A program made the position numbers and the translations under genes. A stretch of DNA of 64,000 nt, from contig CAVXTM010000016.1 in assembly GCA_963764725.1 (NCBI GenBank), positions 384,001 to 448,000 on the forward strand. The letters are read 5' to 3'. Below the pieces are notes generated by a model. The model searched no databases. It saw only the letters and a list, made by a program, of their open reading frames with translations, and was not told where the DNA came from. The stretch comes from an uncultured Gammaproteobacteria bacterium. Lineage in GTDB: Bacteria > Pseudomonadota > Gammaproteobacteria > JACCXJ01. Shown here in pieces: positions 1 to 17,789 of the stretch; position 1 is the stretch's first letter, and each line of letters starts with the position of its first letter.

Positions 1-1532
1 GCCGCCGTGACGGCTTCTTGTATGTTTTCCACGATTCGGTACGGCACGACCGGAAACCCAGCGCTCTGCAACAACCCAAAGACCTCACCAGTCGCGACCC
101 ATCCGCCGTCAGTGATGCTCAGCGGTATGGGCAACACCCGGCCACTGTCCTCGACCATCGGATATTGCTGCGGTTCTAGACAATGTGCAAAGGTATTGGC
201 CGTGTTCCGAGTCCAGGTATGGCAGGGGACACCCGCGCGTACCAGGCGTTCTCGATTCGCTTCGGCATCGCGGCCGGCGACCCAACATACATGCAATGGC
301 TTTCCACACCCTAAACGCCGTGCATGCTGCAACTCCGCCATAAGCGCTGCCCCCACCTCGGGCGCTAGCGCTGATCGGTGCAACAACACGGCGATGACTG
401 CATCCACCTCGTCAGACGCAAGTAGGGCGCGCAGGCTCGCGCCGTACATCTCGGGGAAACGCGGCCAATCGGTCGTGACATCAATGGGATTCATGGCACT
501 TCCATAGGCGGGCAAGTGGCGTCTAATGCGATCCTGCAACGCGCTAGAAAGCGGCGGTACCGCTAGACCTTGCTCTTCAAGCAAGTCCGTCAACTCGACA
601 CCGACCCCACCCGAGTTAGTAATGATCCCGACACGCCTGCCTTTGAGCGGCGGCTGTTGATCCAGCGCGGCCGCCACATCGAGCAATGATCGACCGTCCG
701 CGACGACACGCACGCCCGCTTGGCGCAGGGCCGCCTCGGTGATGGCATACTCGTCTGCGAGCGCCGCAGTGTGGCTCGCCGCAGCCCGTTGTGCAGAGCG
801 GGTGCGGCCTGTCTTTAGGACTATCACGGGTTTTAGTGTCGTCGTTTCGCGGGCTGTCTGATAAAAGGCCCGACCGTCACTGACCGATTCGAGCAACATC
901 GCAATGACACGGGTCTCGGGATCCTCGCCCAAGAATCTCAAGGCCTCTACTTCGTTGACGTCAGAACGGTTGCCGAGGGCAAGGACCTTCGCAAAGCCAA
1001 TCTCACCCTGCTGCGAGCAGGTAAACGCCGCCATCCCGTAGGCCCCGCTCTGGGTCACCAGCGATACCCCACCCGGTGCGGGTAGCCCGAGACCGAGCGA
1101 GGCGTTGAGCCCGTTACCCGTATTGATGATACCGAAACAATTAGGCCCCACGAGGCGTAGTCCGGCTGCTCCGGCTTTATCGGCGATGCGTTGCTGTACG
1201 CGCGCCCCGTCCGGTCCGGTTTCGGCAAAGCCGCCACTAATGATCACGGCCGCCCTTGCGCCGATTGCAATACACTCGTCGATGACGCCCTCAACCGCTT
1301 GTGGTGGCACGAGTATCACCGCCAGATCAATCGTTTTCGGCGTGTCTGCCAGCGACGAGTAAGCGGTCCGATTCGCTATTGTCCTGCGTGAGGGATTGAC
1401 AAAGTACAGCTCGCCTCTATAGCTCCCCAGCATATTTTGCACGAACAGGTGCCCTAAGCTTCCAGGTTGGTCCGAGGCGCCGATTAGGACGACGCTCTCG
1501 GCAGCAAATATCGATTTTCCCCACTCGTTCAC
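1..1532 (-). CDS. ADP-forming acetate/acyl-CoA ligase (fused CoA-binding + ATP-grasp), 3' end beyond the window
   Basis: Not in the ORF track; translated by hand from GTG at 1532, which overlaps the upstream TGA. Reads MNEWGKSIFAAESVVLIGASDQPGSLG...DLAVILVP...IISGGFAETG...RLVGPNCFG...LVTQSGA...LGNRSDV, typical of the ACD family. Confidence 0.9.
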   Translation of the reverse strand, partial: MNEWGKSIFAAESVVLIGASDQPGSLGHLFVQNMLGSYRGELYFVNPSRRTIANRTAYSSLADTPKTIDLAVILVPPQAVEGVIDECIAIGARAAVIISGGFAETGPDGARVQQRIADKAGAAGLRLVGPNCFGIINTGNGLNASLGLGLPAPGGVSLVTQSGAYGMAAFTCSQQGEIGFAKVLALGNRSDVNEVEALRFLGEDPETRVIAMLLESVSDGRAFYQTARETTTLKPVIVLKTGRTRSAQRAAASHTAALADEYAITEAALRQAGVRVVADGRSLLDVAAALDQQPPLKGRRVGIITNSGGVGVELTDLLEEQGLAVPPLSSALQDRIRRHLPAYGSAMNPIDVTTDWPRFPEMYGASLRALLASDEVDAVIAVLLHRSALAPEVGAALMAELQHARRLGCGKPLHVCWVAGRDAEANRERLVRAGVPCHTWTRNTANTFAHCLEPQQYPMVEDSGRVLPIPLSITDGGWVATGEVFGLLQSAGFPVVPYRIVENIQEAVTA

Positions 1533-3049
1533 CGCAACCAATCACCATCCCCCGCGAAGAAGGCCGGTTGTCCACCCGTATGCACAAATACAACCTTGGG
1601 ATACGATCCGAGCCGCTCGTGCCGCAGACCATCCAGTAATCCAGCCATCGCCTTACCGGTGTAGGTCGGATCAAGCAGCAGACCTTCGGTGCGTCCGACG
1701 AGCCTAATCGCATCCGCAGCCTCTATGCTGGGGATCCCGTAGCCTTCGCCGATAAAGCCGCCGTGCACGATCGCATCCTGGGGGGTAAAGGTCCAATCGA
1801 GACCCAGCAGTGCCGCCGCTTCAGTAGCGAGGCGGGCTACCTCCATCCTTGCCTCTTCTGCCGGACGGCTCACGGTAAAGCTCTCGACGGTCCACGGTGA
1901 TCCCAACGCGCGTGTGCCGAATAACCAGCCGGCGTGAGTGGCGCCCGAGCCGGTGGCCAGCACGATCGCGTCGGGATCAAATTCAAGCGCGCGACACTGC
2001 TCGGAGAGCTCTCGCGCCGCCAACGCATGCCCCAGGGCCCCGAGGGCACAGGCCCCGCCGCGTGGGATGGGATAAGGGCGCTGGCCTTTGTGGCGCAGCT
2101 CCTCACAGAGTGCTTGGATACCGCGATCCACAGAGGCGCGATCCGGGTCGCCCGTGAACACCGCCTCTGCCCCGAGCAGGCGGGTGACGCGGTAATTCCC
2201 GTCGATCCGTGCGGGCGCGTCGCTCCAGAAGACGGCGACACAGCGCAGGCCGTAATGCGCGGCCGCGGCCGCCGTCGCACGGACGTGGTTGGACTGCGCG
2301 CCCGCGCCGGTCACGATGGTGTCGGCACCCTGGCCCAGCGCGTCGGCCACCAGCAGCTCCAGGCCTCGGACCTTGTTGCCCCCAAGGCCAAAGCCGATCA
2401 AATCATCCCGCTTGAACCATATCTCCGAGCCGCCGATCGCCCGGCTGAGTCGCCGCATCGGTGAGAACGGTGTGGGGAATTCAGCCAAGGGCCGGCGCGG
2501 CAGCCGTGCGAGGGCTTCCCATGGGCTGCCATGAAGATCGCGGCGACGTACCTTTTCGCCTCCCTCTCCCGCCGGGAAAGTTGTCCATGGCTCCCCAGGA
2601 GAGTCGCCACAACGTACCGCTCCTTCTCCCTCTGGGAGAGCTTCCAAAGGGATGCCACCAACGTCACTGCAACTTATTCGTTCTTCTCCCTCTCCCACCG
2701 GGAGAGGGTGGGAGTGAGGGGAACTAATCGCTGCGGCAGCCCGTATGGCCTCCAACACAGCATCGGGTTCGCGAAGCACATCATGATTCCAGAATCGCAA
2801 AACCCGATACCCCAAGTTTTGCAAGTATTGACTCCGCTGTTGGTCCTGTTCCGTTCGCTCGGCATGTTGCCCACCGTCAAGTTCGATCACCAGCTTGGAT
2901 TTTAGGCAAAGAAAGTCGGCGATGTAGGGACCGAGAGGTTGCTGCCGCCGGAATTTACAATTCTCCACTTGGCGGTTCCTGAGCCGGCTCCACAACAATT
3001 TTTCGGCATCGGTCTGATGCTGTCGCAGTGTTTTGGCAAGTTGCTTCAT
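1529..3049 (-). CDS. xcbE: Fusion: N-terminal DUF559 (Vsr-like) endonuclease + repeat-derived linker + PLP-dependent D-cysteine desulfhydrase-like enzyme (XcbE-like, CoM biosynthesis)
   Basis: aa 1-105 carry DUF559 motifs (QTDAEKLLW, FRRQQPLGPYIADF, IELDGGQH, VLRFWN). The C-terminal ~330 aa carry FPTP, KRDD, GGNKVR, QSNH, TGSGAT, LDPTYTGK, FVHTGG. Lies directly after comA and two lyases. Confidence 0.85.
   Translation of the reverse strand: MKQLAKTLRQHQTDAEKLLWSRLRNRQVENCKFRRQQPLGPYIADFLCLKSKLVIELDGGQHAERTEQDQQRSQYLQNLGYRVLRFWNHDVLREPDAVLEAIRAAAAISSPHSHPLPVGEGEERISCSDVGGIPLEALPEGEGAVRCGDSPGEPWTTFPAGEGGEKVRRRDLHGSPWEALARLPRRPLAEFPTPFSPMRRLSRAIGGSEIWFKRDDLIGFGLGGNKVRGLELLVADALGQGADTIVTGAGAQSNHVRATAAAAAHYGLRCVAVFWSDAPARIDGNYRVTRLLGAEAVFTGDPDRASVDRGIQALCEELRHKGQRPYPIPRGGACALGALGHALAARELSEQCRALEFDPDAIVLATGSGATHAGWLFGTRALGSPWTVESFTVSRPAEEARMEVARLATEAAALLGLDWTFTPQDAIVHGGFIGEGYGIPSIEAADAIRLVGRTEGLLLDPTYTGKAMAGLLDGLRHERLGSYPKVVFVHTGGQPAFFAGDGDWLR
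2507..2721. repeat. Three degenerate ~60-66 bp tandem units, each with a CTCC(C/T)TCTCCC..GGGA(G/A)AG hairpin; the rightmost is a full REP-like copy (2686-2721)
   Basis: Units start at ~2560, ~2620 and ~2686. On the minus strand they translate as PVGEGEE.., PEGEGA.., PAGEGGE.. Confidence 0.75.
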
Positions 3050-3071
3050 CGGGATAAAATCCTTCCTTTAT

Positions 3072-3107
3072 CCCCTCACCCTAACCCTCTCCCGAAGGTA
3101 GAGGGGG
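3072..3107 (+). repeat. REP-like palindrome CCCCTCACCCTAACCCTCTCCCGAAGGTAGAGGGGG, inverted partner of 2686-2721
   Basis: 29/36 identical to the reverse complement of 2686-2721, with an internal hairpin CCCTCTCCC-N3-GGTAGAGGG. Confidence 0.85.
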
Positions 3108-4527
3108 CTGATTTTTTCGCTCGCCACGATCATCCTCCTGGAAATGCCCTTGACCACGGCCGGGTGACAGCGTCCCCGCTAGGGCCAGCACCCGGTCCAC
3201 CATGTGCGCGCAGCAACCGGTGCTCTGTCCCACGTCGAAGAGGCTCTCGATCCCGGCAACGCCGAGCTGCGCTACGATCTGAGTCTCGGCGAGCACGGCC
3301 TCCCGCAGGGGGGTGCCACGCTCGGCGGCGTCCATCGCCACGCGGTACACGAGCGCATGGGCGCTCTGCTTACCGAGCTTGGGGGCCAAGGCCAACATCA
3401 CGCGCTCGGCCTGAACTAAGCCCTTGGTCGCAAGCAGATTGTCCCACATGCGGTCCACGTTGACCTCAAGGTGTTCGAGTAGATCGTGCAACAGCGCCAA
3501 TACCTTGCCGGTCGCGAGACAAGCCCCGGGAAGGAGCACCCATTCCCCCTTCCATGCCCGCCCATCGCGCTCGTGGTCGTGCACGAGATTCTCGCTCATG
3601 TGCGCGGCCTGATACCGCACCGTGCGGGCCAGCGTGCCCAGGTGCTCGGCGATCTCCGGGTTGCGCTTCTGGGGCATGGTGATGCTGCCGACCGTGCCCG
3701 GCACGAATCCCTCGCTGAGCTTCCCCGATCTCCGGCCGCTGCAGGTTGTAAACCTCGTGCCCGATGCGGTCGGCCGTTGCCGCGATCAGGGCGAGGAGGT
3801 TGAGCCATTCGGCGAGACGATCGCGCGCGGCGGTCCAGGAGATCGCGGGGGCCGTGAGCCCGAGCCTCTCGAGGAAGCGCCGCTGCAGCGCGAGCGCGTC
3901 GGGACCGAAGGAGGAGAGACTGCCGACGCCGCCCGCGAGTTGCCCGACGCCAATGCGCGCGCCGACCTCATCGAGGCGTTGGCGGTGGCGCTGGATCTCA
4001 TCGAGCCACCCGGCGGCCTTGAACCCGAAGGTGATCGGAAGGCCGGGCTGACCGTGGGTGCGGCCGCACATCGGCGTATCCCGATAGCGGCGGGCGAGAT
4101 CGCACAGCACCGTTGCAACGCTTGTGAGCTGGTCTTCAAAGATGTCCCGCACCTTGACCAGAATCCGAGCCGTATGCGTGTCCGTGATGTCCTGCACTGT
4201 CGCCCCGTAACAAAGCCATTCTCCGCTGTCGGCTGGGCAGCGGCGCTGGAGCGCGCGAATAAGACCTAGCAGCGAATGATTGGTCTGCTCGAAGTCTTCG
4301 CGCACTTCGCTAAAAAACGCCTCATCGAGCTGCAGGCGCCCGCAGGCATCGGCGAGTTGGTTAGCCGCCGTCGCGGGGATCAAACCGAATTCCGCCTCCG
4401 TCTCGGCGAGCACCACCATGACCTCGATCCAGCCCGCGGCCAGCGCGGTATCATCGAAGAGGGCACGCAGCTCGAGTGTGGCCCATGAATTTCGATAGAT
4501 CGCTGAGTCGCTAATGTGTACCGACAT
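3081..4527 (-). CDS. xcbD: Adenylosuccinate lyase-like enzyme (XcbD-like), one apparent +1 frameshift at ~3721
   Basis: ORF 3466..4527 has GATVQDITDT and MCGRTHGQPG. ORF 3081..3704 has GSITMPQKRNP and HDHERD. Removing one base restores IGELSEGFVPGTVGSITMPQKRNP. Confidence 0.8.
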
Positions 4528-4684
4528 AGCGATTCGCTACCTCGTTGGGCTCGTTGCTGCTATCAAAGGAGCAGAATGCGCGGATTTGTACGCAAGTACA
4601 GCTACGCCCCCGAGCCGAATCCGACCTCGTTGTGGTTGTTGCTTCCAGTGTCGTTGCAAGTGCAGCACGGTATGTGGTTAACTC

Positions 4685-6244
4685 CTACCCCGAATTGGGG
4701 TTCGAGGCCTCCGAACCCAGCACGCCCGCACGGACCGCCCGTAACAGCGAGTCCTCCGCCATTTGGAGCCGCCGGCCACAGTTGCTGGTCCATGCATCGG
4801 TCTCTGCCAAGGCCCTCTCGCATTCGACAATCATCGCCTCCATGGCCTCGGGCGCCGCGCCCCCCCGTTCGGCGCGTGCCAACACGGCGGCCTCAGGGTC
4901 CAGGGCATCCTGGAGGGCTGCTGGCGAGATCTCGACGCCCTTGCCCAGCACCATCTCCGCGGCCGCCGCCAGCTCATCCGGCGCGAGCTGATTCAAATCA
5001 CCGCTCGCCAGATGCCGGCGCACGAGGTGGCCGACCAGCCAATGTGCTTGGCGAAAGTCGAGACCGCTTTCGAGCACGAGCACTTCGGCGAGATCGGTCG
5101 CGAGCGCGAAGCCGTGGTCGAGCAGGCTGCGCCCACGCTGGCCATTGAATGTCAGAAAGCTCACGACCTCGCCCATGAGCCCCACCGCGTCCTGCGTGTC
5201 CGCAATCGCGCGCGGGATAAGGCCGTAAAGTGGCAGGCGGTTGTCCGGTTGCCCCGACGGCGTTCGACCCAATGCCGCGCTCGCCGCGAGCGTGCCGATC
5301 ATCGTACTGGCTACCCCACGAACGTGCGTCAAGGCAAAGGGGTTTTTCTTCTGAGGCATGATCTTGCTCGCACGCGCGTGCCGATCGTCAAGCTCGACCA
5401 GAGCGAACTCCTCGGTGGCATAGATCTGTAGGTCCTCGGCCAAGCGGTCGAGATTGATCAGGATTGCGGTCAGTATCGCGGCCGCCTCGATCGGCAGATC
5501 CGCCTGCCACATGGCATCGCGTGCATGGATGACAAGCCCATCGAAACCCAGAAGATCGCTCAGGCGGCCGCGGTTTTGTGGCAAGCGCGACCCGTTGGTA
5601 CTACCACATCCCGCGGGACTTTGGTTCACCCGCCCGTAAAACGCTCGAACGCGATCGAGATCACGCAGCACAGGGTAGGCAAAACCAAGCAGATAATGAC
5701 CGAAGGTGGTTGGCTGCGCCGCTCGTAGATAGGTATAGTCGGGCAGCAACGCTGAGCGAAACTGGCGCGCCCGCGCGGTGATCACTTTGCCGGTCGTCGC
5801 CAGCGCCTCAGCCAGGCCGATGAGACCCGCGCGCACCTTGATCAGAAATGCGGTTGTGGTTGCTTCGCGCCGCGCCCGGCCTGCGCCCAACCAAGTGCCC
5901 GCGCCTGTCTGCGTGGCCAACCACGCTTCGCGGTTGGTGTAGAGGTCGCCCCTCGATGGGTCCAAGGTAAAATCAGCGGGTCGTTCGTGAAGTTCCAAGA
6001 GGGCAGCGAGAAGATCCCGACCGGCATCACGCGGAACGATGCCCGCCTCCATCATCGCCAGTGTGTGAGCAAGATCGACCCAGCTCATGGCTTCGAATAG
6101 CTCCGCCTGGTCGTCGAGCTCCCTCTTGAAAGCTGCCTGGATCAGTCGCTCGGAGGGACCACGCTCGAGGCGCGCGCCCACCTTGAGCGCGTGCTCCGAT
6201 ACCGGTGAGGGGCAGTCTGGCTCGCGGCTATTTCTTATCGGCAT
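4685..6244 (-). CDS. xcbC: Argininosuccinate lyase-like enzyme (XcbC-like, phosphosulfolactate phosphate-lyase)
   Basis: Fumarase/aspartase superfamily: DYTYLRAAQPTTFGH and variant signature ASKIMPQKKNP. Immediately downstream of comA. Confidence 0.8.
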   Translation of the reverse strand: MPIRNSREPDCPSPVSEHALKVGARLERGPSERLIQAAFKRELDDQAELFEAMSWVDLAHTLAMMEAGIVPRDAGRDLLAALLELHERPADFTLDPSRGDLYTNREAWLATQTGAGTWLGAGRARREATTTAFLIKVRAGLIGLAEALATTGKVITARARQFRSALLPDYTYLRAAQPTTFGHYLLGFAYPVLRDLDRVRAFYGRVNQSPAGCGSTNGSRLPQNRGRLSDLLGFDGLVIHARDAMWQADLPIEAAAILTAILINLDRLAEDLQIYATEEFALVELDDRHARASKIMPQKKNPFALTHVRGVASTMIGTLAASAALGRTPSGQPDNRLPLYGLIPRAIADTQDAVGLMGEVVSFLTFNGQRGRSLLDHGFALATDLAEVLVLESGLDFRQAHWLVGHLVRRHLASGDLNQLAPDELAAAAEMVLGKGVEISPAALQDALDPEAAVLARAERGGAAPEAMEAMIVECERALAETDAWTSNCGRRLQMAEDSLLRAVRAGVLGSEASNPNSG

Positions 6245-7109
6245 GGAAGCTTATCGGAGCCTCGGCGCGCTCCGGCTCGACCTCATGAGGGTCCCAGGCG
6301 CCTGAGCGTACCAGCTCGTCGGTGACCGAGCGCAGGGTCTCGAAGCGAAGTCGGCAGCGCAAGGATTCGACCGCCAATACCTGATCGGGGTGGATATTGC
6401 CCAGCCCCACGTTGGTCCCGAAGCGACGGATCAGGTAGGCCTGCTGCTCCTTGAGCGGGGCTTCCCACACAAGCCGATCCGTCGCAGTACCCAGGATGCG
6501 GCCGATTGCCGCAACGGCGTCGTCGATGACCTGGCCGTTCTCGTCGTAGATCCCCACCGCGCGGCCGGACTCCCTGCCTTCCACCACCACCCAGCGCGCG
6601 CCATGTTCCAGATCCTCCAAGGCCTGCTCGGCCATCTGCTCCGCCGAAGGCTGCTGCCTCGGGTCCTTCTTACCCACCTCGGTGATGGGAACGAGCCCGG
6701 CGTCCAGCGCGCAGTGAATGATGTTCCTTCGGCGCAAGGCCGGCATCGGGATCGTGCCATCGGAGATCTCGACGGCGCTGAAACCCAAGGTCTTCGCGTG
6801 TTTCATATAATCTCGGCAGTGGCGCTCGACGAGTGCGACCTCGAGCAGCGTACCGCCCGGGAAGGTCAGCACCTCGTACTCGGCGAGTAGCGCCAGCTTG
6901 TGCTGCAGGATTTGCTTGGTGAGAAACACCGAGGTTCCGAAGCTGAGCTTCCAGTGGTCGATGCAGTGACCTGCGAGCTCGATGGTATCGCGTAGCAAGG
7001 CCAGGCCAACGCCCGTGTCGATGACCATCGTTACCCCGGCAGTTCGGGGCTTTTGCGTGCGATCGCCGATGAGGCTCTTAACGATGGGATCCCAGGCGAG
7101 CTCAGGCAT
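6228..7109 (-). CDS. comA: Phosphosulfolactate synthase (ComA/XcbB)
   Basis: KPRTAGVTMVIDTG, KLSFGT, PGGTLLE, EISDGTI, EVGKK, EGRESG, WEAP, NVGLGNI. Confidence 0.93.
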   Translation of the reverse strand: MPELAWDPIVKSLIGDRTQKPRTAGVTMVIDTGVGLALLRDTIELAGHCIDHWKLSFGTSVFLTKQILQHKLALLAEYEVLTFPGGTLLEVALVERHCRDYMKHAKTLGFSAVEISDGTIPMPALRRRNIIHCALDAGLVPITEVGKKDPRQQPSAEQMAEQALEDLEHGARWVVVEGRESGRAVGIYDENGQVIDDAVAAIGRILGTATDRLVWEAPLKEQQAYLIRRFGTNVGLGNIHPDQVLAVESLRCRLRFETLRSVTDELVRSGAWDPHEVEPERAEAPISFHADKK

Positions 7110-8016
7110 ATTCCACACCCCGCGAGAGGAGACCAAGAGCCTGTTCGACCATCGGAAGGTCGGCGCCCCAGGGAACCACCGCCGTCATGTCGTCTTGTTC
7201 AATGCCAAATTCTAACAGGCAGCATTTGAGGAGGGTGGGGCGAGTTGATGTTGGCGCGAGCTTCCGAGGACACATCTCCACGCGCGGGGGCTCATCCCCG
7301 TAGTAATGCCGGTGGAACTGGAGGCTGCGTTCGCAGCCGATCAGGGTCCAGGGGCGGCGCACGGGGGGACGCTCATCGAGAAAGTACACGGGCGCTCCGA
7401 GCTCATCGAGACCGCCCGAGCGGCAGGGTACGAGATAAGCCTCGGGCTGAACCTGCCTACAAAGCTCGCGGAGGTCGATGCGCTCGAGCTCGAGACAGAT
7501 GGGCGGGAGATCGGCATAGCTCAGGACGTGCTCGGCCATTTTGTAGAGCTTCGGCGGATCCGGCGGAGCGACCTCGACGACCCGCAGGATCATAGGATCG
7601 GGGTGGTGGATGATGTTGATATGATCGAATGTGCCTTGAACGACGACCGTCCGATCCGACCCGAGGCGGTGCTTACGAGCGAGCATGGCGAGCGCCGAGC
7701 GGTTGGCCGGATCGGTCTCGGGTGATTGTATGAATACACAATCAGCGGGCAAGGCCAGTACCTCTACGGCCTCGACACGGGTGAACAGCGCGTCCGATTC
7801 GGCCCGCTGCACCGCTGCCACGGCCAGTTGATGATCTGCATTATGTAAGACCACGACATCGGTGCGCCGGTAGACCTCGCGTGATAGCAAATGTGTTTCG
7901 ATAGCCGCCTCGGTCATGGCTCCTTCATATGGCTGAAAGCTCACTCGGCGATAGGGTAGAGGCACGAAGTTGTTCTGCCACTTGAGACTCCCGACCTTGA
8001 GCACTTCGCCGCCCAT
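7102..8016 (-). CDS. Cys-rich hypothetical protein translationally coupled to comA
   Basis: 304 aa ORF inside the operon with VPC, IGCERS, MCP and KCCLLE motifs; its stop overlaps the comA start. Confidence 0.75.
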   Translation of the reverse strand: MGGEVLKVGSLKWQNNFVPLPYRRVSFQPYEGAMTEAAIETHLLSREVYRRTDVVVLHNADHQLAVAAVQRAESDALFTRVEAVEVLALPADCVFIQSPETDPANRSALAMLARKHRLGSDRTVVVQGTFDHINIIHHPDPMILRVVEVAPPDPPKLYKMAEHVLSYADLPPICLELERIDLRELCRQVQPEAYLVPCRSGGLDELGAPVYFLDERPPVRRPWTLIGCERSLQFHRHYYGDEPPRVEMCPRKLAPTSTRPTLLKCCLLEFGIEQDDMTAVVPWGADLPMVEQALGLLSRGVEYA

Positions 8017-8887: not shown

Positions 8888-9800
8888 ACAGATCCATCCA
8901 AGGGCGCGAGCCCTGCTTCCAGGAGGCGAGGAATTTGAGCGCCTCTGCGCCCCCGATAGCCTCCAGGTATTCGGCGTGCGAGGGACAGCCATAGACGTAG
9001 GGCTGCAGGTAAAGATCACGAAATGCGGCCGCGCCGTCGCTCGCAAAGCGGTGGTACTCGGCGGTGTGCTGGCGATCGTAGGCATAGAACGGATAGCACG
9101 CGGTTGGGTGTGCTCCGTACGGGACCTCGGCCAACGCCGTGACGTAGAAATAGGGGATGGTCGTGCCCGCTTCCGTGAGCTGCTCGGGCGGCACGATCTT
9201 CTCAACCGTCGCGATCACCTTTTTAGATGCCTTGGCGAACAGGACGTCGGCGACGGGTGGCCCCTGGATCTGCAGATTGCCGTGCGCGTCGCCATAGTGA
9301 GCATGCAGAATCGCGACATCGGGCTGGAGCGCGGGCACGAGGACCAGCTCTTCCCCGGTGAACGGACAGAGTATGGTCTTGTAGTCCGGATCAATGTGCA
9401 TGAACCCCGTACCCCGCACCGAGCGGATAGGCATGAATGGCAGACCGGCAATCGCGGCGCGCAGCTGCTGCACCAGGGTATAACAACAGCTGTCCCGCAC
9501 CTCGACCGCCCCGGACTCGCAGGCGCGCCGATAATTAGGAGCCATCCCGAAGTCCTGTTCGAATCCCACGTAAGATTCGGCACTCACGGCCACGGCACCC
9601 GCCCCGCAGAGCAGGTCTACATCGATTCCATGCGCCGAGCCCACGAGCTTGAGGCCCTTGATCTGCTGCCGCACGAGCTCACGCAGAGCTGCCATGGGCT
9701 CGCGCCAGGACAGGCCACCGCCGATGGCAACGCAATCGCCCTCGCGTACGTGCGCGACCAAACTAGGGAGGTCACAGCGCTTGTCGGCTTGGGTGTACAT
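8880..9800 (-). CDS. CoA-transferase subunit A
   Basis: VAIGG..REPMAALRELVRQ, LRAAIAGLPFMP, CPFTGE, PDVAILHA..GDAHGN, VPYGAHPT. Confidence 0.9.
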   Translation of the reverse strand: MYTQADKRCDLPSLVAHVREGDCVAIGGGLSWREPMAALRELVRQQIKGLKLVGSAHGIDVDLLCGAGAVAVSAESYVGFEQDFGMAPNYRRACESGAVEVRDSCCYTLVQQLRAAIAGLPFMPIRSVRGTGFMHIDPDYKTILCPFTGEELVLVPALQPDVAILHAHYGDAHGNLQIQGPPVADVLFAKASKKVIATVEKIVPPEQLTEAGTTIPYFYVTALAEVPYGAHPTACYPFYAYDRQHTAEYHRFASDGAAAFRDLYLQPYVYGCPSHAEYLEAIGGAEALKFLASWKQGSRPWMDLYA

Positions 9801-9806
9801 CGCTGT

Positions 9807-10586
9807 TCAGATCGCGGTCATGCCGCCATCGACGCAAAAGACGGCACCGGATATGAAGCTGGCCTCGTCGGAGGCGAGGAACAGCGCGGCCTGCGCTATC
9901 TCCTCCGGTCGGCCAAACCGACCGATAGGGTATTTGGCCAGCTTCGCCTGGGTTTCTGCGGTAGTGTCGCGCTCCAGGATCTGTCGATCGAGAGCAGTGC
10001 CCGCCACTCTTCCCGGGCATAAGCAATTCACCCGAACGCCGAGGGCGGTGTAATCGGCTGCCATCTGCCTGGTGAGCCCGATGACCGCCGCCTTCGAAGC
10101 ACAGTAGGCGGCCATCCTCGGGAACCCAATGACGCCGGCTATGGAGGCGATGTTGATGATAGCTCCCCCGTGTTGCTTCATCTGTGACAGTACGGCTTGG
10201 GAGCACAAAAACGTCCCAGTGACGTTGACGGCCATGATGCGTTCCCAGGAATCGGCGGTGGCGTCCTCGACGCTGCCAAACTCCGCGATACCTGCATTGT
10301 TGACAAGCACGTGGACCATGCCGGCATCGTGAGTAATGATCTTCCCAAACGTCTCCGCGACGCCTCGCGCATCGGCCACATCGACGCAGAAGGCAGCGGC
10401 GTCCATCCCCTCTTTGCGCAGCTCGACTTCGGTCTTTTCGACCAATGGCCCATCGCGATCCAGAATCGACATACGCGCACCTTCGCGGCCAAACAGGCGG
10501 GCTATTGCAAGCCCAATCCCGGAACCACCCCCGGTAATGATCGCATTCTTATTGGCTAATCTCGCCGCCAGGCTCGGCTTCTCCAT
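9807..10586 (-). CDS. xecE: Short-chain dehydrogenase, 2-(S)-hydroxypropyl-CoM dehydrogenase-like (candidate hydroxyethyl-CoM dehydrogenase)
   Basis: TGGGSGIG, NNAG, YCASK. Segments MAAYC, LTRQMAADY, LAKYPIGRFG and VDGGMTAI match my recollection of Xanthobacter S-HPCDH. Confidence 0.75.
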   Translation of the reverse strand: MEKPSLAARLANKNAIITGGGSGIGLAIARLFGREGARMSILDRDGPLVEKTEVELRKEGMDAAAFCVDVADARGVAETFGKIITHDAGMVHVLVNNAGIAEFGSVEDATADSWERIMAVNVTGTFLCSQAVLSQMKQHGGAIINIASIAGVIGFPRMAAYCASKAAVIGLTRQMAADYTALGVRVNCLCPGRVAGTALDRQILERDTTAETQAKLAKYPIGRFGRPEEIAQAALFLASDEASFISGAVFCVDGGMTAI

Positions 10587-10590
10587 GAGT

Positions 10591-12159
<1,569 letters not shown>

Positions 12160-12239
12160 TCAAACAAGCGAGCGAAGAGTGGACTGGCCGCATTCGTTTC
12201 GTGAACCTCAACAGTCTCGACGGTGATTTAGCACCCGAA

Positions 12240-12455
12240 TTAATGGAGCCTCGCACCTCCCCCATTGCAACATGGGCAACCCGCCCCATGTCGCACTTCA
12301 AGCGGATGCGGAACAGGGACCGAGTCCGCGCGTATCTGTGCCCGATCCCCGCCGCACTGCGAGCAGATCCACTTCTCGGGCTCGCGGGTACCGGCGAAGA
12401 CCATGCCGCCAAAGCGATAGCCACAGTCGGGGCACAGGAGTTGATAGATCGGCAT
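12240..12455 (-). CDS. Small FmdB-type zinc-ribbon protein between xecA and xecC (xecB position)
   Basis: MPIYQLLCPDCG...ICSQCGG...HPLE...GCPCC, 71 aa. Confidence 0.8.
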   Translation of the reverse strand: MPIYQLLCPDCGYRFGGMVFAGTREPEKWICSQCGGDRAQIRADSVPVPHPLEVRHGAGCPCCNGGGARLH

Positions 12456-12499
12456 CGTGTGATACTTACGCGAAACCCGACATTGGACGGGTTGACGCG

Positions 12500-13618
12500 T
12501 CAAGCGGCCTTCTTGCCCAGCTCCGCCCGCACCAACTCTGTCCCCTGCACTAACGCGTGCAGCTTGTCGATGGCAATGTAGCGCTGCAGCAGGATCAGAC
12601 CGCAGTCGGTCGTGACCCCGAGACGCTGGGCCGGTACCACCTGCAAAAGCCGCCGGATCCGATCCGCGACCTGCTCTGCAGTTTCCGTGATCGTGCTCTT
12701 GACATCGATTACTCCCGCCCAGAAACAGACATTGTCTGGCAGCGGGTGGGCCTTCATGATCTCGAGGCCGCTCATATCGTCGCTCCGGCGGCCACAGTTC
12801 TCGAGATTCAAGACATTGATGCGCGCTTGGTAGGCCTTCGGCACCACGGAGCCTGTGGCCGCGGGTTCCTTGCCGCGTCGCTTGCTCAGGTCGAAGATCT
12901 CGCCCGCCTTAGCCGTATCGTCCGGCAAGTAAGCTGGTGTGCCTCCCCAGTTTCCCCAACACACATGGACGACGATCTGGGCATTCTTGACGCCCTCCAC
13001 GGCGCGATTGAATGCCTCGACTGCCCAATTTTCAAATCCGTAGGGCCAGGTAAACTCGTCTAACTGAATAAAATCGACGCCGAGGGCATCCACTTCCCGC
13101 AGGTCTTCATTGATCGCCGCGGCAATCGCCATGGCCCGATCACGTGAGGATTTGTAATGCAGGTCATTGGTCGCCTGAGCCAGGACCTGAATACCGGTGT
13201 ATTGGATCTTGATAGGCTTCCGGGTCGCTCGCTTCAGTGCCCGCGCCTGTTCCACCATAATGGCGCCGCGCCGTTTGACTTCTTGGTCCAAGGTCCCGGC
13301 GTGCAGGCGGCTGTAGATGGGAAAGCCAAGATAACCGCCCTTGAGGTTATATCCCAGGCGCCGGTAGTAGTAATAGACTGCCTGGTCGGCATAGTTGTCG
13401 CCGTGCACCCGCCCGTCAGCGATGATGTCGAGCCCAGCGTTCTCTTGGTCCCTGGCGATGGCCGCGACCGCATCCTCCAAGGCCTCGCGCATCAGGGCAT
13501 CCGGGGGTTCTTGGTCGCCGGTAAAGTCCCGCGCAAACTCGGCGTCCCACCATCTCGGATTCGGGTAGTTTCCCACCATGCTGGTCGGGATAAGTATTTC
13601 TTGATTACGAATTTTCAC
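12500..13618 (-). CDS. xecA: Epoxyalkane:coenzyme M transferase (2-hydroxypropyl-CoM lyase)
   Basis: MetE C-terminal-like fold with Zn ligands HVCWGN and TDCG. PTSMVGNYPNPRWWD and GYLGFPIYSRLHAG match recalled XecA. RBS AGGAGG precedes the GTG. Confidence 0.93.
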   Translation of the reverse strand: MKIRNQEILIPTSMVGNYPNPRWWDAEFARDFTGDQEPPDALMREALEDAVAAIARDQENAGLDIIADGRVHGDNYADQAVYYYYRRLGYNLKGGYLGFPIYSRLHAGTLDQEVKRRGAIMVEQARALKRATRKPIKIQYTGIQVLAQATNDLHYKSSRDRAMAIAAAINEDLREVDALGVDFIQLDEFTWPYGFENWAVEAFNRAVEGVKNAQIVVHVCWGNWGGTPAYLPDDTAKAGEIFDLSKRRGKEPAATGSVVPKAYQARINVLNLENCGRRSDDMSGLEIMKAHPLPDNVCFWAGVIDVKSTITETAEQVADRIRRLLQVVPAQRLGVTTDCGLILLQRYIAIDKLHALVQGTELVRAELGKKAA

Positions 13619-13649
13619 CGTTGTCTCCTCCTCCTAGGACAGCTCACCT

Positions 13650-13712
13650 ATGGTCATCCAAGCGGCAGGGATTTGCAAGGACTAGTATTTGTTTATCTTT
13701 GTTATTCTTCGC
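13650..13712 (-). promoter_or_regulatory. Candidate xecA promoter with AT-rich ATAACA/ATAAACA direct repeat upstream of a TTGCAA -35
   Basis: Minus strand reads gaATAACAaagATAAACAaatactagtccTTGCAA-N17-GACCAT. Confidence 0.4.
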
Positions 13713-13741
13713 TAATCAGATTGACTGGACCGTTTTGCGAG

Positions 13742-14551
13742 CTACGGTCCCAGGGTTTCGACACTGCTAAGCCCAGCGACCAGCCGGTCCGGCAACTGGA
13801 TGCGTGGGTGGAGGCACAGGGATTCGAAGATGGTCACAGCCGGAAACGCTTCTAGCGAATACTGGCAGACGATAGTCACTCCCGGAAGCCGGCGTAGCTG
13901 TGCATCGAGCTGCGCCTCATAGCTTAGGAGCTGCTCGTAGCCCGGCGCACCGCGCGTCGCCCATGACATCTCACCGGTCAACAAGAGCCGCATAGCGTTC
14001 TTCTTTCGAGCCCGAGCGATCTCAGTCTCCCAAAAGCGGAGCATGCGAGCGGAATCGAAAGACCCGTTACGCAGATAGGACTTCGACGCTGGAATTAAGC
14101 GGAGTAAACCTCGTGAGATTGAGGACGCAGCCTCCAAGCCTTCGGAACGGAGCCAGGCGTGTACCCGGGCTTCCCCATCTTCCCCATCGCAGAGATAGAC
14201 CGTAGCGGTCCCGGGACGGAGATGCGACAACAGGTACGGCGCGAGTAACCGCCACTGCTGTTCAACGGTCTTGAAGTTTATGCAAACATGCTGCGGGAGT
14301 TTCTCCCGCATCGCGGTTGTCAGCGACTCCGCTGCCGGCGCGGTTAGCGGGTTGGGGTGCAGGATCTCGGCGCCAGGAGGCGAGCGCACAAACGCTAACA
14401 GATGATCCAGCTTGAAGCGGCGTTCATGGCGGTGGCCGACGCGATAGCAAGGCAGTTTTCCGTTAGCCGTCCAGCGACGTAGCGAGGTTTTGCTAACCTT
14501 TAAGAATGCGGCTGCTTCGTTGATAGTTAGGAATCCCTGGGGGTCTGGCAT
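13742..14551 (-). CDS. Transcriptional regulator: excisionase-type HTH + MEDS (DcmR-like) sensor domain
   Basis: LTINEAAAFLKVSKTSLRRW...YRVG...ERRF, then HVC..F, SYL..GSFD, LTGEMSWA, LLSYEA.L, IVCQY, LHP. Confidence 0.88.
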   Translation of the reverse strand: MPDPQGFLTINEAAAFLKVSKTSLRRWTANGKLPCYRVGHRHERRFKLDHLLAFVRSPPGAEILHPNPLTAPAAESLTTAMREKLPQHVCINFKTVEQQWRLLAPYLLSHLRPGTATVYLCDGEDGEARVHAWLRSEGLEAASSISRGLLRLIPASKSYLRNGSFDSARMLRFWETEIARARKKNAMRLLLTGEMSWATRGAPGYEQLLSYEAQLDAQLRRLPGVTIVCQYSLEAFPAVTIFESLCLHPRIQLPDRLVAGLSSVETLGP

Positions 14552-14560
14552 ATCTACAGG

Positions 14561-15973
14561 TCACTTTCCGTATTTGTCCCAGTGGCCTCGGAAGAGGGTT
14601 TGCTCGCTGATCACGCGTGCCTGGATCGGCCGCGAGACCCAGGTCAAGTTGATAAAGTGTCTGGCATTGACGTTTTCGGTGGTGATATTACCACCCCACG
14701 TGCCACAGCTTAGGCTTAGGGTATAGGGAAGCCCATTTCTGGGGCTACCGGCACCCTCGTTGAGATTCTGATTGACCAGGATCCGCCCAGTCTTAGTTCC
14801 GTAAGCCAACGCCATCACATGCTCATCCGAGCGCGTGTGAATCCCGCACGTGTGACCGCGTCCCTGATAATTAGTAATCGTGTTGACCAGTTTGACCGCA
14901 TTCTGGATCCCTCCTTCGTAGCGGTACAGCGCTAACACGACCGATAATTTTTCGCCCGAGAAGGGATACTCAGGCCCCACTCCGCTCTCCTCTACCACGA
15001 GGAAACTTCGGTCACCCGGCATCGTGATGCCCGCCATACGCGCGATCTGCCCCGCAGCTTTTGCAATCACAGCGACAGAGGGAATCGATGAAGCGGGATC
15101 CGGCCACATGAGCCTTTGCAGGTTGGCCTTTTCGTTCGAGTTGCACACATAAGCGCCGTTGGCAACCAAGGTCGCGGTCAAGTCATCGTAGATTTCTGCG
15201 GCGGCGACTACGGCATTGTCGGCAAGGCAACTGGTCGCACAGTCAAAGGTCTTTGCCGTCGCGATCGCTCGCGCTGCGTCCTCGAGGTCCGCGGTCTCAT
15301 CAACGACATGGACGGTGTTCCCCACACCCACCCCGTACGCCGGGGTCCCAGAACTGTAAGCGGCCTTGACCATCCCCTCCCCGCCAGTCGCAACGATCAG
15401 ATCGGCCTGGCGCATGAGCTCTTGGGTCTTGACCAGCGATGGCTTGTCGACGATCTGGACGAGATCGGCCGGGGCGCCGACCTGCTCGCAGGCTTCGCGC
15501 ATGTACTGAACCGCTAGCGCCGTGGTCTTCTGGGTGCGCGGGTGGGCAGCGATGACGATGGCGTTACGCCCTTTCAGGACCAACAAGGCCTTAAGCGGTG
15601 GCGTTGCATCGGGTCCAGTCGTGGGAATCAGGGCAGCGACCACCCCGACCGGTTTAGCGATCTTGACCAGTCCTCGCTCGGCAATCTCCTCGACAAGGCC
15701 GACCGTCTTGACGTTCGCGATATCCGCCAATGTACCCATGATGCGATTTCGAATCTTGGTCACTTTGTCGTGATAGTTTCCGAAACCGCCTTCATCCACC
15801 GCGAGCTTTGCCAGGGCCTCGGCCCGCTCCTGGCGCACCACTGACCAGGCCACCGCCGCGGTCAGATCATCGACCTGTTGCTGGGAGTATCCCTCGATGG
15901 CCTCATGAGCCCGTCTTGCTCGTCTGACCAAGTCCCCGATGACAACGGCTGTGTTCGTATTCTCAGAACTCAA
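14561..15973 (-). CDS. CoA-acylating aldehyde dehydrogenase (SauS/EutE-like)
   Basis: AKPVGVVAALIPTT, KGRNAI, ATGG..MVKAAYSSGTPAYGVGVGN, catalytic TSC, SGEKLS, GHTCGIH, LSCGTWGGN. TTG start. Confidence 0.88.
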   Translation of the reverse strand: MSSENTNTAVVIGDLVRRARRAHEAIEGYSQQQVDDLTAAVAWSVVRQERAEALAKLAVDEGGFGNYHDKVTKIRNRIMGTLADIANVKTVGLVEEIAERGLVKIAKPVGVVAALIPTTGPDATPPLKALLVLKGRNAIVIAAHPRTQKTTALAVQYMREACEQVGAPADLVQIVDKPSLVKTQELMRQADLIVATGGEGMVKAAYSSGTPAYGVGVGNTVHVVDETADLEDAARAIATAKTFDCATSCLADNAVVAAAEIYDDLTATLVANGAYVCNSNEKANLQRLMWPDPASSIPSVAVIAKAAGQIARMAGITMPGDRSFLVVEESGVGPEYPFSGEKLSVVLALYRYEGGIQNAVKLVNTITNYQGRGHTCGIHTRSDEHVMALAYGTKTGRILVNQNLNEGAGSPRNGLPYTLSLSCGTWGGNITTENVNARHFINLTWVSRPIQARVISEQTLFRGHWDKYGK

Positions 15974-16000
15974 CGATCCGGCCCTCAGAATCTCGCCCTA

Positions 16001-16043
16001 TAGCATTACTCATAACATAGCATTGTTATACTTTATTCGTCAA
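16001..16043 (-). promoter_or_regulatory. Candidate sigma70 promoter (TTGACG-N18-TATGTT with TG extension) overlapped by palindrome ATAACA-N6-TGTTAT
   Basis: AT-rich island upstream of the aldehyde dehydrogenase. Palindrome at 16012-16029; TAGCATT direct repeat at 16001 and 16018. Confidence 0.55.
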
Positions 16044-16178
16044 AGGTAAGCCGTGGTTCTGTCGATAACAGATGCCCGAGCTTGAGATGCTTTAGTACGC
16101 AGGTACGTTCAAGCGCTTTTGTTGCAGGTTCGAGATGCGACCACGTTGGCGGCCAGGCCACAGCAGCTAAAAAGTGAC

Positions 16179-17789
16179 CTACAGGGCCATATAAGAATTC
16201 ATGCGCCCGACCGACCTTTCACGAATCAGATCCGCTGCCTTCTCGGCGATCATGATCGTTGGCGCATTGGTGTTACCGCTCACGATCGCCGGCATGATCG
16301 ACCCGTCCACGACTCGCAATGCCTCGATTCCGCGCACTCGCAGATAGGGATCGACGACCGCCATCTCGTCGTTGCCCATCTTGCACGTACCGACAGGGTG
16401 CCAAGTGGTAGAGGCGGTACGCCTCACGAAGGACTCGATGTCCGCGTCGCTTCTCAAGCTCACGCCCGGCGCTATCTCCTCGCCGCGGATGTCGTCAAAT
16501 GCTTTGGAATACAGAATTCTGAGGTTCCAGCGCACGCCGGCGACGGCACATCTTACGTCGTCAGGTACGCTCAAGTAGTTGGGGTTGATAATCGGCCGAT
16601 CGAGAGGATCGGACGAGGCGAGTGTGATCTCGCCACGGCTTAGCGGTCGATTAATGTAGGAGGTAAACGTAACGCCATGCCGTTTTGGTGGCCCGGCTTC
16701 GGGGTAATCAGGAGAGAGGGTCATCAGAAAAAATAGCTGTAGTCCCGGATACGCCTCTTGCGCCTCGCTTCTGACGAACGCTCCTGCCTCAAGGAAGTTC
16801 GAGCCGAGCGCGCCGCTTCGATTCGCTTCGTATTCCCGAAGTGCGGCTGCCTTTAGTTTATCCGGGAGCGGAGCAAAGGTGAGCGGTTGCGTGATCTCGC
16901 ACCGCACCCGGGCGTGGAGGTGGTCCTGTAGATTCTGGCCCACGCCCGGGAGATCCTGGCGAACGTCGATACTCAGCCGCTGAAGGGCGGTATTTGGCCC
17001 GATACCGGAAAGCATCAGTAACTGCGGCGAACGGAAAGCGCCGGCTGACACAATGACCTCACAAGCAGCGTGCGCTTTCTCCACGGCCCCAAAGCGAAAA
17101 TATTCGACTCCCACTGCGCGGGTTCCGCTGAAATGTAGCCTCGTCGCATAGGCGTGTGTCAGGACGGTCAGATTCGGACGCGAGCGCGCCGGGTGCAGGT
17201 ATGCAACAGCGGTGCTGCATCGGGCACGGTTCGCGAGCGTTGCCTGTAAGGGACCGCACCCTTCCTGAAGCTCGCCGTTGAAGTCCGGGTTGAACGGAAT
17301 TCCAATTTCTTGGGCGGCGGCTAGATAGCACGCAACGAGAGCGTTAGAAGAAGGATGGCTTTCCACCAGGAGCGGACCCGCTGTACCGTGATATCGGTTG
17401 GAGATGGCTTGATTGTTCTCGGCTTTCACAAAGTACGGTAAGACGTCATCGTAGCCCCAACCATCGTTTCCACTGCGACACCATTGATCGTAGTCACCGC
17501 GGTTTCCGCGGATGTAGATCATGTAATTAATGGCGCTCGATCCTCCGAGCACCCTGCCTTGAGGCACAAAGATACGGCGTCCGTCTAAATGTGCTTGGGG
17601 AATCGTTCGATCAGCCCAGTCGTAGGGGCTATCTTGCAGCTGTCCGTAGAATGCCGGTGTCCGGATCAACGGCGAGTCGTCCTCGCCGCCGGCTTCGAGC
17701 AAAAGCACCCGACAAGCGGGATCTTCCGTCAACCTGCTTGCTAACACGCAACCGGCCGATCCTGCGCCGATGATGACGTAGTCAAACAT
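16179..17789 (-). CDS. GMC family FAD oxidoreductase (choline dehydrogenase-like)
   Basis: DYVIIGAGSAG, GRVLGGSSAIN, VGQNLQDH, WHPVGTCKMG, SGNTNAP. Confidence 0.93.
   Translation of the reverse strand: MFDYVIIGAGSAGCVLASRLTEDPACRVLLLEAGGEDDSPLIRTPAFYGQLQDSPYDWADRTIPQAHLDGRRIFVPQGRVLGGSSAINYMIYIRGNRGDYDQWCRSGNDGWGYDDVLPYFVKAENNQAISNRYHGTAGPLLVESHPSSNALVACYLAAAQEIGIPFNPDFNGELQEGCGPLQATLANRARCSTAVAYLHPARSRPNLTVLTHAYATRLHFSGTRAVGVEYFRFGAVEKAHAACEVIVSAGAFRSPQLLMLSGIGPNTALQRLSIDVRQDLPGVGQNLQDHLHARVRCEITQPLTFAPLPDKLKAAALREYEANRSGALGSNFLEAGAFVRSEAQEAYPGLQLFFLMTLSPDYPEAGPPKRHGVTFTSYINRPLSRGEITLASSDPLDRPIINPNYLSVPDDVRCAVAGVRWNLRILYSKAFDDIRGEEIAPGVSLRSDADIESFVRRTASTTWHPVGTCKMGNDEMAVVDPYLRVRGIEALRVVDGSIMPAIVSGNTNAPTIMIAEKAADLIRERSVGRMNSYMAL

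Follow-up and report, generated by a model that had tools for sequence, protein, structure and literature searches.

The gene cluster

The stretch of DNA analyzed here, called the window, comprises 64,000 nucleotides from an uncultured gammaproteobacterium (assembly GCA_963764725.1, contig CAVXTM010000016.1, positions 384001-448000; in our notation G000:C16:384001-448000, where G000 is this genome and C16 the window's contig). Listing of the open reading frames (ORFs) and family scans revealed at its left end a cluster of genes all transcribed from the minus strand, in the order GMC oxidoreductase to acyl-CoA synthetase, that appears to encode a pathway which acts on small epoxides and depends on coenzyme M (CoM), together with enzymes of CoM synthesis. 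At several junctions neighboring starts and stops overlap or stand 4-16 nt apart. The features are, in the direction of transcription:

16179-17789, minus: GMC-family (choline-dehydrogenase-like) FAD oxidoreductase, 536 aa (PF00732, PF05199; NF002550, 603.9 bits, cut-off 605)
14561-15973, minus: CoA-acylating aldehyde dehydrogenase, SauS-like, 470 aa (NF047625, 518.6 bits, cut-off 600)
13742-14551, minus: MEDS-domain regulator with N-terminal helix-turn-helix, 269 aa (PF14417, residues 88-249; PF12728, residues 7-57)
12500-13618, minus: epoxyalkane:coenzyme M transferase EaCoMT (XecA/EtnE), 372 aa (PF01717, MetE-type catalytic domain)
12240-12455, minus: XecB-like FmdB-type zinc-ribbon protein, 71 aa from an internal ATG (CxxC...CxxC...CPCC; TIGR02605, 25 bits, cut-off 31.3)
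10591-12150, minus: 2-KPCC-like NAD(P)H:disulfide oxidoreductase, 519 aa (PF07992, PF02852)
9807-10586, minus: short-chain dehydrogenase (SDR), candidate hydroxyalkyl-CoM dehydrogenase, 259 aa (PF13561, PF00106)
8880-9800, minus: CoA-transferase subunit A, 306 aa (PF01144)
8033-8887, minus: CoA-transferase subunit B, 284 aa from ATG 8887 (weak PF01144 match; start found by start-codon scan and overlapping the end of subunit A)
7102-8016, minus: XcbA (NF052538, 484.9 bits, cut-off 150; PF24830)
6228-7136, minus: XcbB/ComA, phosphosulfolactate synthase (PF02679; TIGR03849, 294.8 bits, cut-off 280)
4685-6244, minus: XcbC, phosphate elimination from phosphosulfolactate (NF052535, 731.4 bits, cut-off 575)
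3081-4527, minus: XcbD, 3-sulfopropionylcysteine synthase, frameshifted (NF052536, two pieces in two frames)
2528-3184, minus: DUF559 (Vsr-like endonuclease fold) insert (ORF 2735-3049; PF04480, E = 4.5e-41)
1529-2515, minus: XcbE, pyridoxal phosphate enzyme, native start lost (NF052537, 510.2 bits, cut-off 450)
1-1541, minus: NDP-forming acyl-CoA synthetase, 693 aa, of which the first 513 lie inside the window (PF13380, PF13607, PF19045)

The synthetase gene (TIGR02717, 396 bits, under the cut-off of 567) runs past the left edge of the window to G000:C16:383460, and PF13549 lies in the left-flank part of its 693-aa product. Next comes a gene for a CoA-disulfide reductase (CoADR)-like protein (C16:382062-383444; TIGR03385, 398.7 bits against a cut-off of 578.8), whose single Cys, residue 42, stands in YTACGQPYY, which may correspond to the CoADR motif. 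A Sir2 gene on the opposite strand beyond it marks the end of the cluster.

An earlier reading of the window made from the letters alone (the sequence-only reading) had let the cluster end at the left edge. The co-directional genes that it named were all found on the minus strand, although its own list adds up to 14 rather than the 13 it gave, and the overlap of start and stop codons that it noted is there at several junctions. Its hypothetical protein is XcbA, so that the genes of CoM synthesis number five rather than four. The GMC gene, which lies inside the interval that it covered, went undescribed, and the frameshift in xcbD and the DUF559 insertion were missed.

EaCoMT and the proteins encoded around it

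The protein encoded at 12500-13618 is 80% identical to XecA from Xanthobacter autotrophicus Py2, 49% to EtnE from Nocardioides sp. JS614 and 46.5% to EtnE from Mycolicibacterium chubuense NBB4, against at most 33% to plasmid-encoded methionine synthases. It has kept H218-V-C220 and, in a C-terminal TTDCG, C339, exactly as in XecA; this His-x-Cys...Cys arrangement we take to be the zinc motif. The closest relatives (85-98% identity) are from Methylococcaceae and allied metagenome-assembled genomes (MAGs). Judged by these identities the protein groups with the characterized EaCoMT and not with the methionine synthases; a grouping with the latter would, according to the sequence-only reading, have refuted the pathway.

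The small zinc-ribbon protein is 56.6% identical to Xaut_4866 of strain Py2, whose gene is located between xecA and xecC. A homolog was found in 33 of 80 loci collected with EaCoMT, which form the comparison set used throughout. A 102-aa ORF at 12116-12424 was rejected as a gene since its composition is that of a wrong frame, it belongs to no family and the zinc-ribbon protein occupies another frame.

The MEDS regulator has 34% identity to Xaut_4864 of strain Py2 and about 31% to the MEDS proteins of strain JS614. For the SDR the identities are 55% to Xaut_5073 and 52% to XecE of strain Py2, 47% to the JS614 SDR adjoining the CoA-transferase and 38% to XecD. Subunit A of the CoA-transferase is 65.7% identical to Xaut_5072 and about 52% to the proteins from JS614 and NBB4; subunit B, whose match begins at residue 116 in the long ORF, is 65% identical to Xaut_5071, and the synthetase is 52% identical to Xaut_5066.

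The 2-KPCC-like reductase carries Tyr at position 506

The reductase (10591-12150) is 61% identical to XecC of strain Py2 and 51% to its JS614 homolog. According to the alignment it retains C82, C87, H84, H137, M140, R56, R365 and F501, and at position 506 it has a Tyr (motif FLNPSYF). Cys82, Cys87, Arg56 and Arg365 are invariant across the alignment; the first two form the redox-active CxxxxC pair, the two arginines presumably bind the sulfonate. In 2-KPCC, His506 takes the place of a Glu in the disulfide oxidoreductases (DSOR).

The dyad Phe501-His506 is what defines 2-KPCC (PMC8358701; PMC9062435). Phe501 stands where the DSOR enzymes have their catalytic His, and Arg365 flanks the anion pocket (PMC8358701). 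CO2 binding and carboxylate formation have been assigned to His506, and the variant H506E gave 63% acetone (PMC8358701; PMC9062435). Of these features, the reductase from the window has Cys82/Cys87, Phe501 and Arg56/Arg365 and lacks His506. Lacking one 2-KPCC-defining residue, it may cleave the thioether without carboxylating.

The exchange is not a peculiarity of this genome. Among 48 locus homologs (those with less than 40% identity were omitted from the motif table) position 506 is Tyr in 8 and His in 40. In a quick maximum-likelihood tree (IQ-TREE), limited to rows with at least 450 aligned residues and 45% identity or more, the nine rows with Tyr506 (eight loci and the window) form a single clade; its SH-aLRT support is 100 and its stem measures 0.61 changes per site. 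Tyr is fixed within this clade and His506 is invariant in the remaining 39 rows. In all, five positions that are near-invariant elsewhere are fixed differently in the clade: N155G, E207D, I272F, M419L and H506Y.

The GMC oxidoreductase and the acylating aldehyde dehydrogenase

Homologs of the GMC oxidoreductase with 66-81% identity are encoded in 6 of the 80 loci, all of Methylococcaceae or related (Methylococc-) type. In three of them (L013, L020, L022) the gene lies between the SauS-like gene and that for EaCoMT; in the other three (L012, L057, L058), in which no homolog of the SDR or of the reductase was found, it lies past the CoADR-like gene. The GMC oxidoreductase is therefore a conserved neighbor in clusters of the methanotroph type, and it could catalyze the step from alcohol to aldehyde.

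The nearest solved structures to the aldehyde dehydrogenase are those of acylating succinate-semialdehyde and acetaldehyde dehydrogenases. The enzyme scores under the SauS equivalog cut-off and falls in the group of CoA-acylating aldehyde dehydrogenases. When compared with the proteins of 72,556 plasmids, it was 70.8-71.9% identical to two copies from JS614 and 71.7% and 68.0% identical to two from NBB4. Among the matches listed, relatives at 68-72% come only from these two ethene and vinyl chloride assimilators, the other plasmid matches having about 45% identity or less; a match on the Py2 plasmid pXAUT01 was not found among the 12 listed, the lowest of which has about 44% identity.

In 2024 Toppings et al. 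(Microb Genom; PMC11507031) placed a "sulfoacetaldehyde dehydrogenase" of methanotroph clusters in CoM synthesis as a functional analog of XcbA. Of the 25 loci with a gene for the aldehyde dehydrogenase, 20 also have xcbA, which argues, contrary to that suggestion, that the enzyme does not replace XcbA.

The host

The genome, 4.21 Mb in 19 contigs and 96.94% complete, contains pmoCAB on contig C18, a second copper monooxygenase (CuMMO) operon in the A-B-C (pxm-like) order at C16:486607-489547, about 39 kb past the right end of the window, and a third pmoA-like gene, split into two frames, at C3:34673-35361. PmoA is 89% identical to proteins from uncultured gammaproteobacterial MAGs, 69% to that of Methylogaea oryzae, the best named cultured match, and 57% to AmoA of Nitrosacidococcus; by this protein the host belongs to an uncultured gammaproteobacterial lineage.

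An alkene monooxygenase was not found in the cluster, and the search for PF02332, the family of the soluble di-iron monooxygenases (SDIMO), gave no match in the 96.94%-complete genome, while the same search gave two in pXAUT01, both of them hydroxylase subunits. For this reason the cluster cannot be called self-contained, as the sequence-only reading had it; nor, in view of the condition of xcbD and xcbE described below, complete.

EaCoMT is encoded in three of eight other genomes of the genus, two of the three (G001, G007) being unpublished, and was not found in six other genomes of the family that were searched. A hexulose-6-phosphate synthase (TIGR03128) was not found above the cut-off in the genome, the best match scoring 23.8 bits, although pmoCAB and a block of pentose-phosphate genes are there.

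Distribution and relation to known clusters

Relatives of EaCoMT are encoded in 233 stretches of GTDB contigs when one genome per species is counted, from which it follows that CoM use by bacteria is less rare than the sequence-only reading assumed. Of the 80 loci compared, 65 contain the genes for both CoA-transferase subunits, 60 that for XcbA, 52 that for the reductase, 38 that for the synthetase and 25 that for the aldehyde dehydrogenase; the layout is common across Pseudomonadota, Actinomycetota, Chloroflexota and Myxococcota. EaCoMT/CoM clusters with an EaCoMT 78-80% identical to that of the window are common in MAGs of Acidimicrobiia, including 'Candidatus Spongiisociaceae' (L061-L064, L066-L071, L074, L076, L077, L079, L083, L085, L086, L089); their number indicates that the CoM toolkit is widespread in that lineage.

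The plasmid pXAUT01 of strain Py2 carries three clusters. Two have the order xecA-xecB-xecC-xecD-xecE-xcbA-E, and one of these adjoins xamoABCDEF and a divergently transcribed homolog, 34% identical, of the MEDS regulator. Cluster three (Xaut_5075-5065) encodes a truncated reductase, two SDRs, CoA-transferase subunits A and B, XcbA-D, a synthetase and a CoADR-like protein, in the order of the tail of the cluster in the window and with 42-66% identity. With Py2 the window thus shares the order xecA-xecB-xecC-SDR-xcbA-B-C-D-E, with identities of 80% (XecA), 57% (XecB), 61% (XecC) and 49-62% (Xcb proteins). It differs in that Py2 has xamoABCDEF next to a cluster, whereas this genome has no SDIMO; in that clusters 1 and 2 of Py2 have two SDRs and lack the CoA-transferase; and in that XecC has His506 and, among the matches listed, pXAUT01 has no close SauS-like aldehyde dehydrogenase.

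The plasmid pNOCA01 of JS614 and the genes of NBB4 include the CoADR-like protein, SDR, CoA-transferase A and B, synthetase, XcbA-E, aldehyde dehydrogenase, MEDS regulator and 2-KPCC-like reductase; every component of the cluster in the window is also encoded on the JS614 plasmid. The aldehyde dehydrogenases are 68-72% identical and the other proteins 36-53%. Unlike in the window, the gene order is different with modules on both strands, the organisms grow on ethene with EtnABCD, and the reductase retains His506.

The closest precedent is the paper of Toppings et al., who described this cluster type in aerobic methanotrophs and reported expression data (PMC11507031). In Methylohalobius crimeensis 10Ki, which has no alkene monooxygenase, ethylene raised etnE expression up to 220-fold and the amounts of 11 of 13 cluster proteins. 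They found etnE in 14 of 150 genomes of cultured methanotrophs and interpreted the cluster to detoxify epoxyethane formed by particulate methane monooxygenase (pMMO) (PMC11507031). Those clusters resemble that of the window in having a methane-oxidizing host without alkene monooxygenase, in their patchy occurrence among relatives and in the genes for EaCoMT, SDR, CoA-transferase A and B, XcbB-E, NDP-forming synthetase, "sulfoacetaldehyde" dehydrogenase, a COG0446-type reductase, a MEDS protein and an E3-like reductase. Two strains of their Table S5, Methylolobus aquaticus FWC3 (L013) and Methylotetracoccus oryzae C50C1 (L022), are in the reductase clade of the window. Among the differences are these: XcbA is encoded here, whereas M. 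crimeensis is said to have no XcbA homolog; the reductase gene here is co-directional and adjacent rather than on the opposite strand; and xcbD is frameshifted here and followed by the DUF559 insertion. None of the 14 entries of Table S5 has 19 scaffolds, as this genome has, which therefore appears to be outside their set.

The sequence-only reading was largely right in what it observed and right in kind in its interpretation, a CoM-dependent route for epoxides that brings along the genes for making CoM, and it overstated novelty and completeness. The "hybrid architecture" that it saw is not a special one: the CoA-transferase accompanies EaCoMT in 65 of 80 loci from many phyla and the third Py2 cluster has the same tail order. 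What it presented as a strong candidate system is of a type already published with expression data (PMC11507031). Not in the main text of that paper are the clade-wide exchange of His506 for Tyr and the GMC neighbor. The words GMC, choline and dyad do not occur in that main text; the GMC gene may stand unnamed in its Fig. 2 or Tables S2-S4.

Proposed pathway

We consider it likely that the cluster serves the CoM-dependent removal and partial assimilation of small epoxides in a methane oxidizer that has copper monooxygenases and no alkene monooxygenase. Ethylene would be co-oxidized to epoxyethane by pMMO or by the second, pxm-ordered CuMMO, as has been argued for other methanotrophs (PMC11507031). 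EaCoMT, to judge from its 80% identity to XecA and the conserved residues of the zinc motif, would open the epoxide with CoM to give 2-hydroxyethyl-CoM, which the SDR, the GMC oxidoreductase or both would oxidize to 2-oxoethyl-CoM. The SauS-like aldehyde dehydrogenase and the 2-KPCC-like reductase would then jointly free CoM and yield a C2 or C3 acyl-CoA, in either order. The thioester could be formed first, followed by reductive C-S cleavage to acetyl-CoA; or cleavage with protonation could give acetaldehyde, which is then acylated; or cleavage with carboxylation could give malonate semialdehyde, with acylation as the next step. A side route via the free acid may be the task of the CoA-transferase and of the NDP-forming synthetase, the CoADR-like enzyme may keep the thiol cofactors reduced and the MEDS regulator may govern expression.

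By analogy with Py2, XcbB, C, D, E and A would build CoM from phosphoenolpyruvate, sulfite and cysteine. For the Py2 orthologs this synthesis has been demonstrated, and XcbA was described as a [2Fe-2S] protein that as the last enzyme reduces sulfoethanethioaldehyde to CoM (PMC9457059).

The published schemes for the late steps differ: carboxylation to malonate semialdehyde is based on the chemistry in PMC8358701 and belongs to the ethene scheme given in PMC8727900, versus the direct formation of acetyl-CoA proposed in PMC11507031. In the clade of the window, Tyr506 weakly disfavors the order in which carboxylation comes first.

It is tempting, if rather speculative, to go one step further and propose that the methanotroph-clade reductase with Phe501/Tyr506 gave up carboxylation and is now a plain reductive thioether lyase, which, joined by the acylating aldehyde dehydrogenase and a GMC alcohol oxidase specific to the clade, would form a short detoxification route from epoxide via hydroxyethyl-CoM and oxoethyl-CoM to acetyl-CoA, here in an uncultured, possibly atmospheric-methane-oxidizing host that is losing its CoM supply. 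If true, this would resolve, for methanotrophs at least, the dispute over the late part of the C2 pathway.

Ethylene blocks methane oxidation because methane monooxygenase makes a reactive epoxide from it. CoM-based removal of the epoxide would decide which methanotrophs tolerate ethylene-rich soils and sediments, an idea that is already in print. To this the window adds a further uncultured host lineage and a case of probably damaged cofactor-supply genes, and the exchange His506Tyr and the GMC neighbor provide handles on the late steps of ethene/epoxyethane metabolism.

Several points weigh against the proposed removal of small, preferably C2, epoxides. EaCoMT and the reductase are nearer to the propene enzymes of Py2 (80 and 61% identity) than to the ethene enzymes of JS614 (49 and 51%), and the SDR groups with enzymes of the S-HPCDH type (XecE, Xaut_5073); a C3 or a wider substrate range is for these reasons conceivable. 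With Tyr in place of His506 the chemistry of the reductase is uncertain. The roles given to the CoA-transferase, the synthetase, the GMC oxidoreductase and the CoADR-like enzyme are guesses. A scan for promoters and terminators remained at chance level, with 4 promoter-like sites versus 4.4 expected. Finally, with xcbD frameshifted and present in no second copy and with xcbE deprived of its own start, CoM may not be made at all.

Probable damage in the genes of CoM synthesis

The match of xcbD to NF052536 is divided between two frames: one piece covers positions 1-273 with 426.5 bits, the other 272-443 with 251.6 bits, each under the cut-off of 600. The break is near 3720, where the window has one base more than its closest relative, L011 (+1 frameshift); at the junction one frame gives ...PEIGE|AQRG... 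and the second ...KLSEGFVPGTVGSITMPQKRNP.... L011 is 93.9% identical in nucleotide sequence over 10.5 kb, and between the two only the frame of xcbD is broken. Metagenome contigs from four of four runs are likewise one base shorter at 3720-3722 (7, 5, 5 and 5 contigs in X1, X2, X4 and X6, respectively); they come from relatives and not from this strain, the best run containing 15% of the sampled words. A second copy of xcbD was not found in the genome. The genes rpoB and rpoC are uninterrupted, which indicates that indel errors are not rampant in the assembly. The additional base is compatible both with a real mutation and with an assembly error.

The second lesion lies downstream. Where L011 has a 56-bp junction between xcbD and xcbE, the window has 657 bp (2528-3184) with the DUF559 ORF (2735-3049), bounded by palindromes resembling repetitive extragenic palindromic (REP) elements. 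By the insertion the last codons of xcbD, and with them the C-terminus of XcbD, are altered, and the N-terminus that XcbE has in L011, MASGKPSFINTPSPWEAL, is replaced, the native ATG of xcbE being gone. The xcbE frame runs unbroken into the DUF559 ORF back to ATG 3049 (1529-3049, 506 aa, of which residues 180-499 are the XcbE domain); near the domain the only in-frame starts are TTG 2647, TTG 2488 and ATG 2458. It is possible that XcbE is made as a fusion with DUF559 or from an internal start such as TTG 2488.

DUF559 was not found in any of the 80 related loci. The genome contains three such ORFs, the insert in the window, G000:C16:189180-189494 and G000:C18:332044-332358, each bracketed by the same palindrome of about 38 bp, of the type CCCTCTCCC...GGGAGAGGG; an internal TGA is present in one of the copies, and at 8 or more places the palindrome stands by itself. 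The unit has the behavior of a small element that is mobile or associated with REPs. The metagenome contigs of the relatives leave most of the DUF559 ORF uncovered and therefore carry no weight either way. A single contig, weak as evidence (X2 record 9, 565 nt, about 90% identity), covers 2434-2996, from the 5' end of xcbE into the DUF559 ORF; in spanning the junction it suggests that the insertion is also present, and tolerated, in a diverged relative.

The arm of the cluster that supplies CoM is thus probably damaged, and the system may be impaired or decaying, unless the frameshift is an assembly error. The strongest alternative to the proposed pathway follows from this, namely that in this genome the cluster is a decaying remnant, in which no CoM is synthesized and the pathway is inactive or relies on CoM from outside. 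We regard this as a serious possibility, albeit not the favored one. That the extra base is shared neither by L011 nor by the contigs of any of the four runs, that there is no second xcbD, that the DUF559 element displaces both the end of xcbD and the start of xcbE, and that rpoB and rpoC are uninterrupted all fit a remnant. On the other hand, the other 13 genes of the cluster are intact and near to those of L011, a lone indel could be an error of the assembly, the contig from X2 suggests that the insertion is tolerated in a diverged relative, and XcbE could still arise as a fusion or from TTG 2488.

Two clusters of the Methylumidiphilus type have about 1 kb between xcbC and xcbD (L017:18753-19804 and L018:10703-11745) as compared to 157 bp in the window; this may be another insertion in the CoM block.

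Size of the substrate

We consider a C2 substrate, as preferred by the sequence-only reading, fairly probable, with a broader specificity possible. An acylating aldehyde dehydrogenase needs an aldehyde, and only the adduct of a C2 epoxide, or one attacked terminally, gives one, which favors C2. The presence of a single SDR rather than an R/S pair, the aldehyde dehydrogenase shared with JS614 and NBB4 at 68-72% identity and the reported response of the homologous cluster to ethylene point in the same direction.

It is unlikely that this machinery has C3 epoxides (epoxypropane formed in the co-oxidation of propene) as its main substrates or accepts small epoxides broadly, with the reductase working on 2-ketopropyl-CoM as in Xanthobacter, even though EaCoMT and the reductase are closest to the Py2 propene enzymes, the order xecA-xecB-xecC-SDR-xcbA-E is that of Py2 and the SDR is 52% identical to XecE. 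In Py2 the two SDRs are one R-specific and one S-specific enzyme, both of which are needed; here there is only one. A ketone as intermediate would leave the acylating aldehyde dehydrogenase, the CoA-transferase and the synthetase without a task, and the close relatives of the first of these were, among the plasmid matches listed, limited to ethene and vinyl chloride assimilators. His506, the proposed CO2 site that acetoacetate formation requires, is a Tyr, and it was ethylene to which the homologous cluster of M. crimeensis reacted (PMC11507031).

Isethionate dehydrogenase belongs to the GMC family, and GMC enzymes oxidize 2-substituted ethanols; that the GMC oxidoreductase and the SauS-like dehydrogenase make up a module for sulfonates (leading, for example, from isethionate via sulfoacetaldehyde to sulfoacetyl-CoA), apart from the carbon flow from the epoxide, or take part in CoM synthesis or turnover, is nevertheless quite improbable, for although the top NCBIfam match of the dehydrogenase is the acylating sulfoacetaldehyde dehydrogenase (518.6 bits) and Toppings et al. 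(PMC11507031) assign the enzyme to CoM synthesis as an XcbA analog, the score is under the family cut-off of 600, the gene stands alongside xcbA in 20 of 25 loci, the enzyme is the component most conserved with the JS614 and NBB4 clusters, and the bacterial route to CoM works in vitro without such an enzyme (PMC9457059).

Other features of the window

Between 34000 and 48200 the GC content is 0.65-0.73, compared to about 0.60 around it, and the region looks like an acquired island. Encoded in it are a pump of the RND efflux type (34077-38510), a fusion of an outer-membrane efflux protein with FUSC (42361-45156) and a Y2-type transposase (46962-48122). To the left of it, a 211-aa ORF at 30756-31391 matches only positions 9-112 of 334 of the transketolase N-terminal domain and is probably a gene fragment. 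A transketolase N-terminus that looks full-length is encoded at 62520-63737, within a block of pentose-phosphate genes at 55606-63737.

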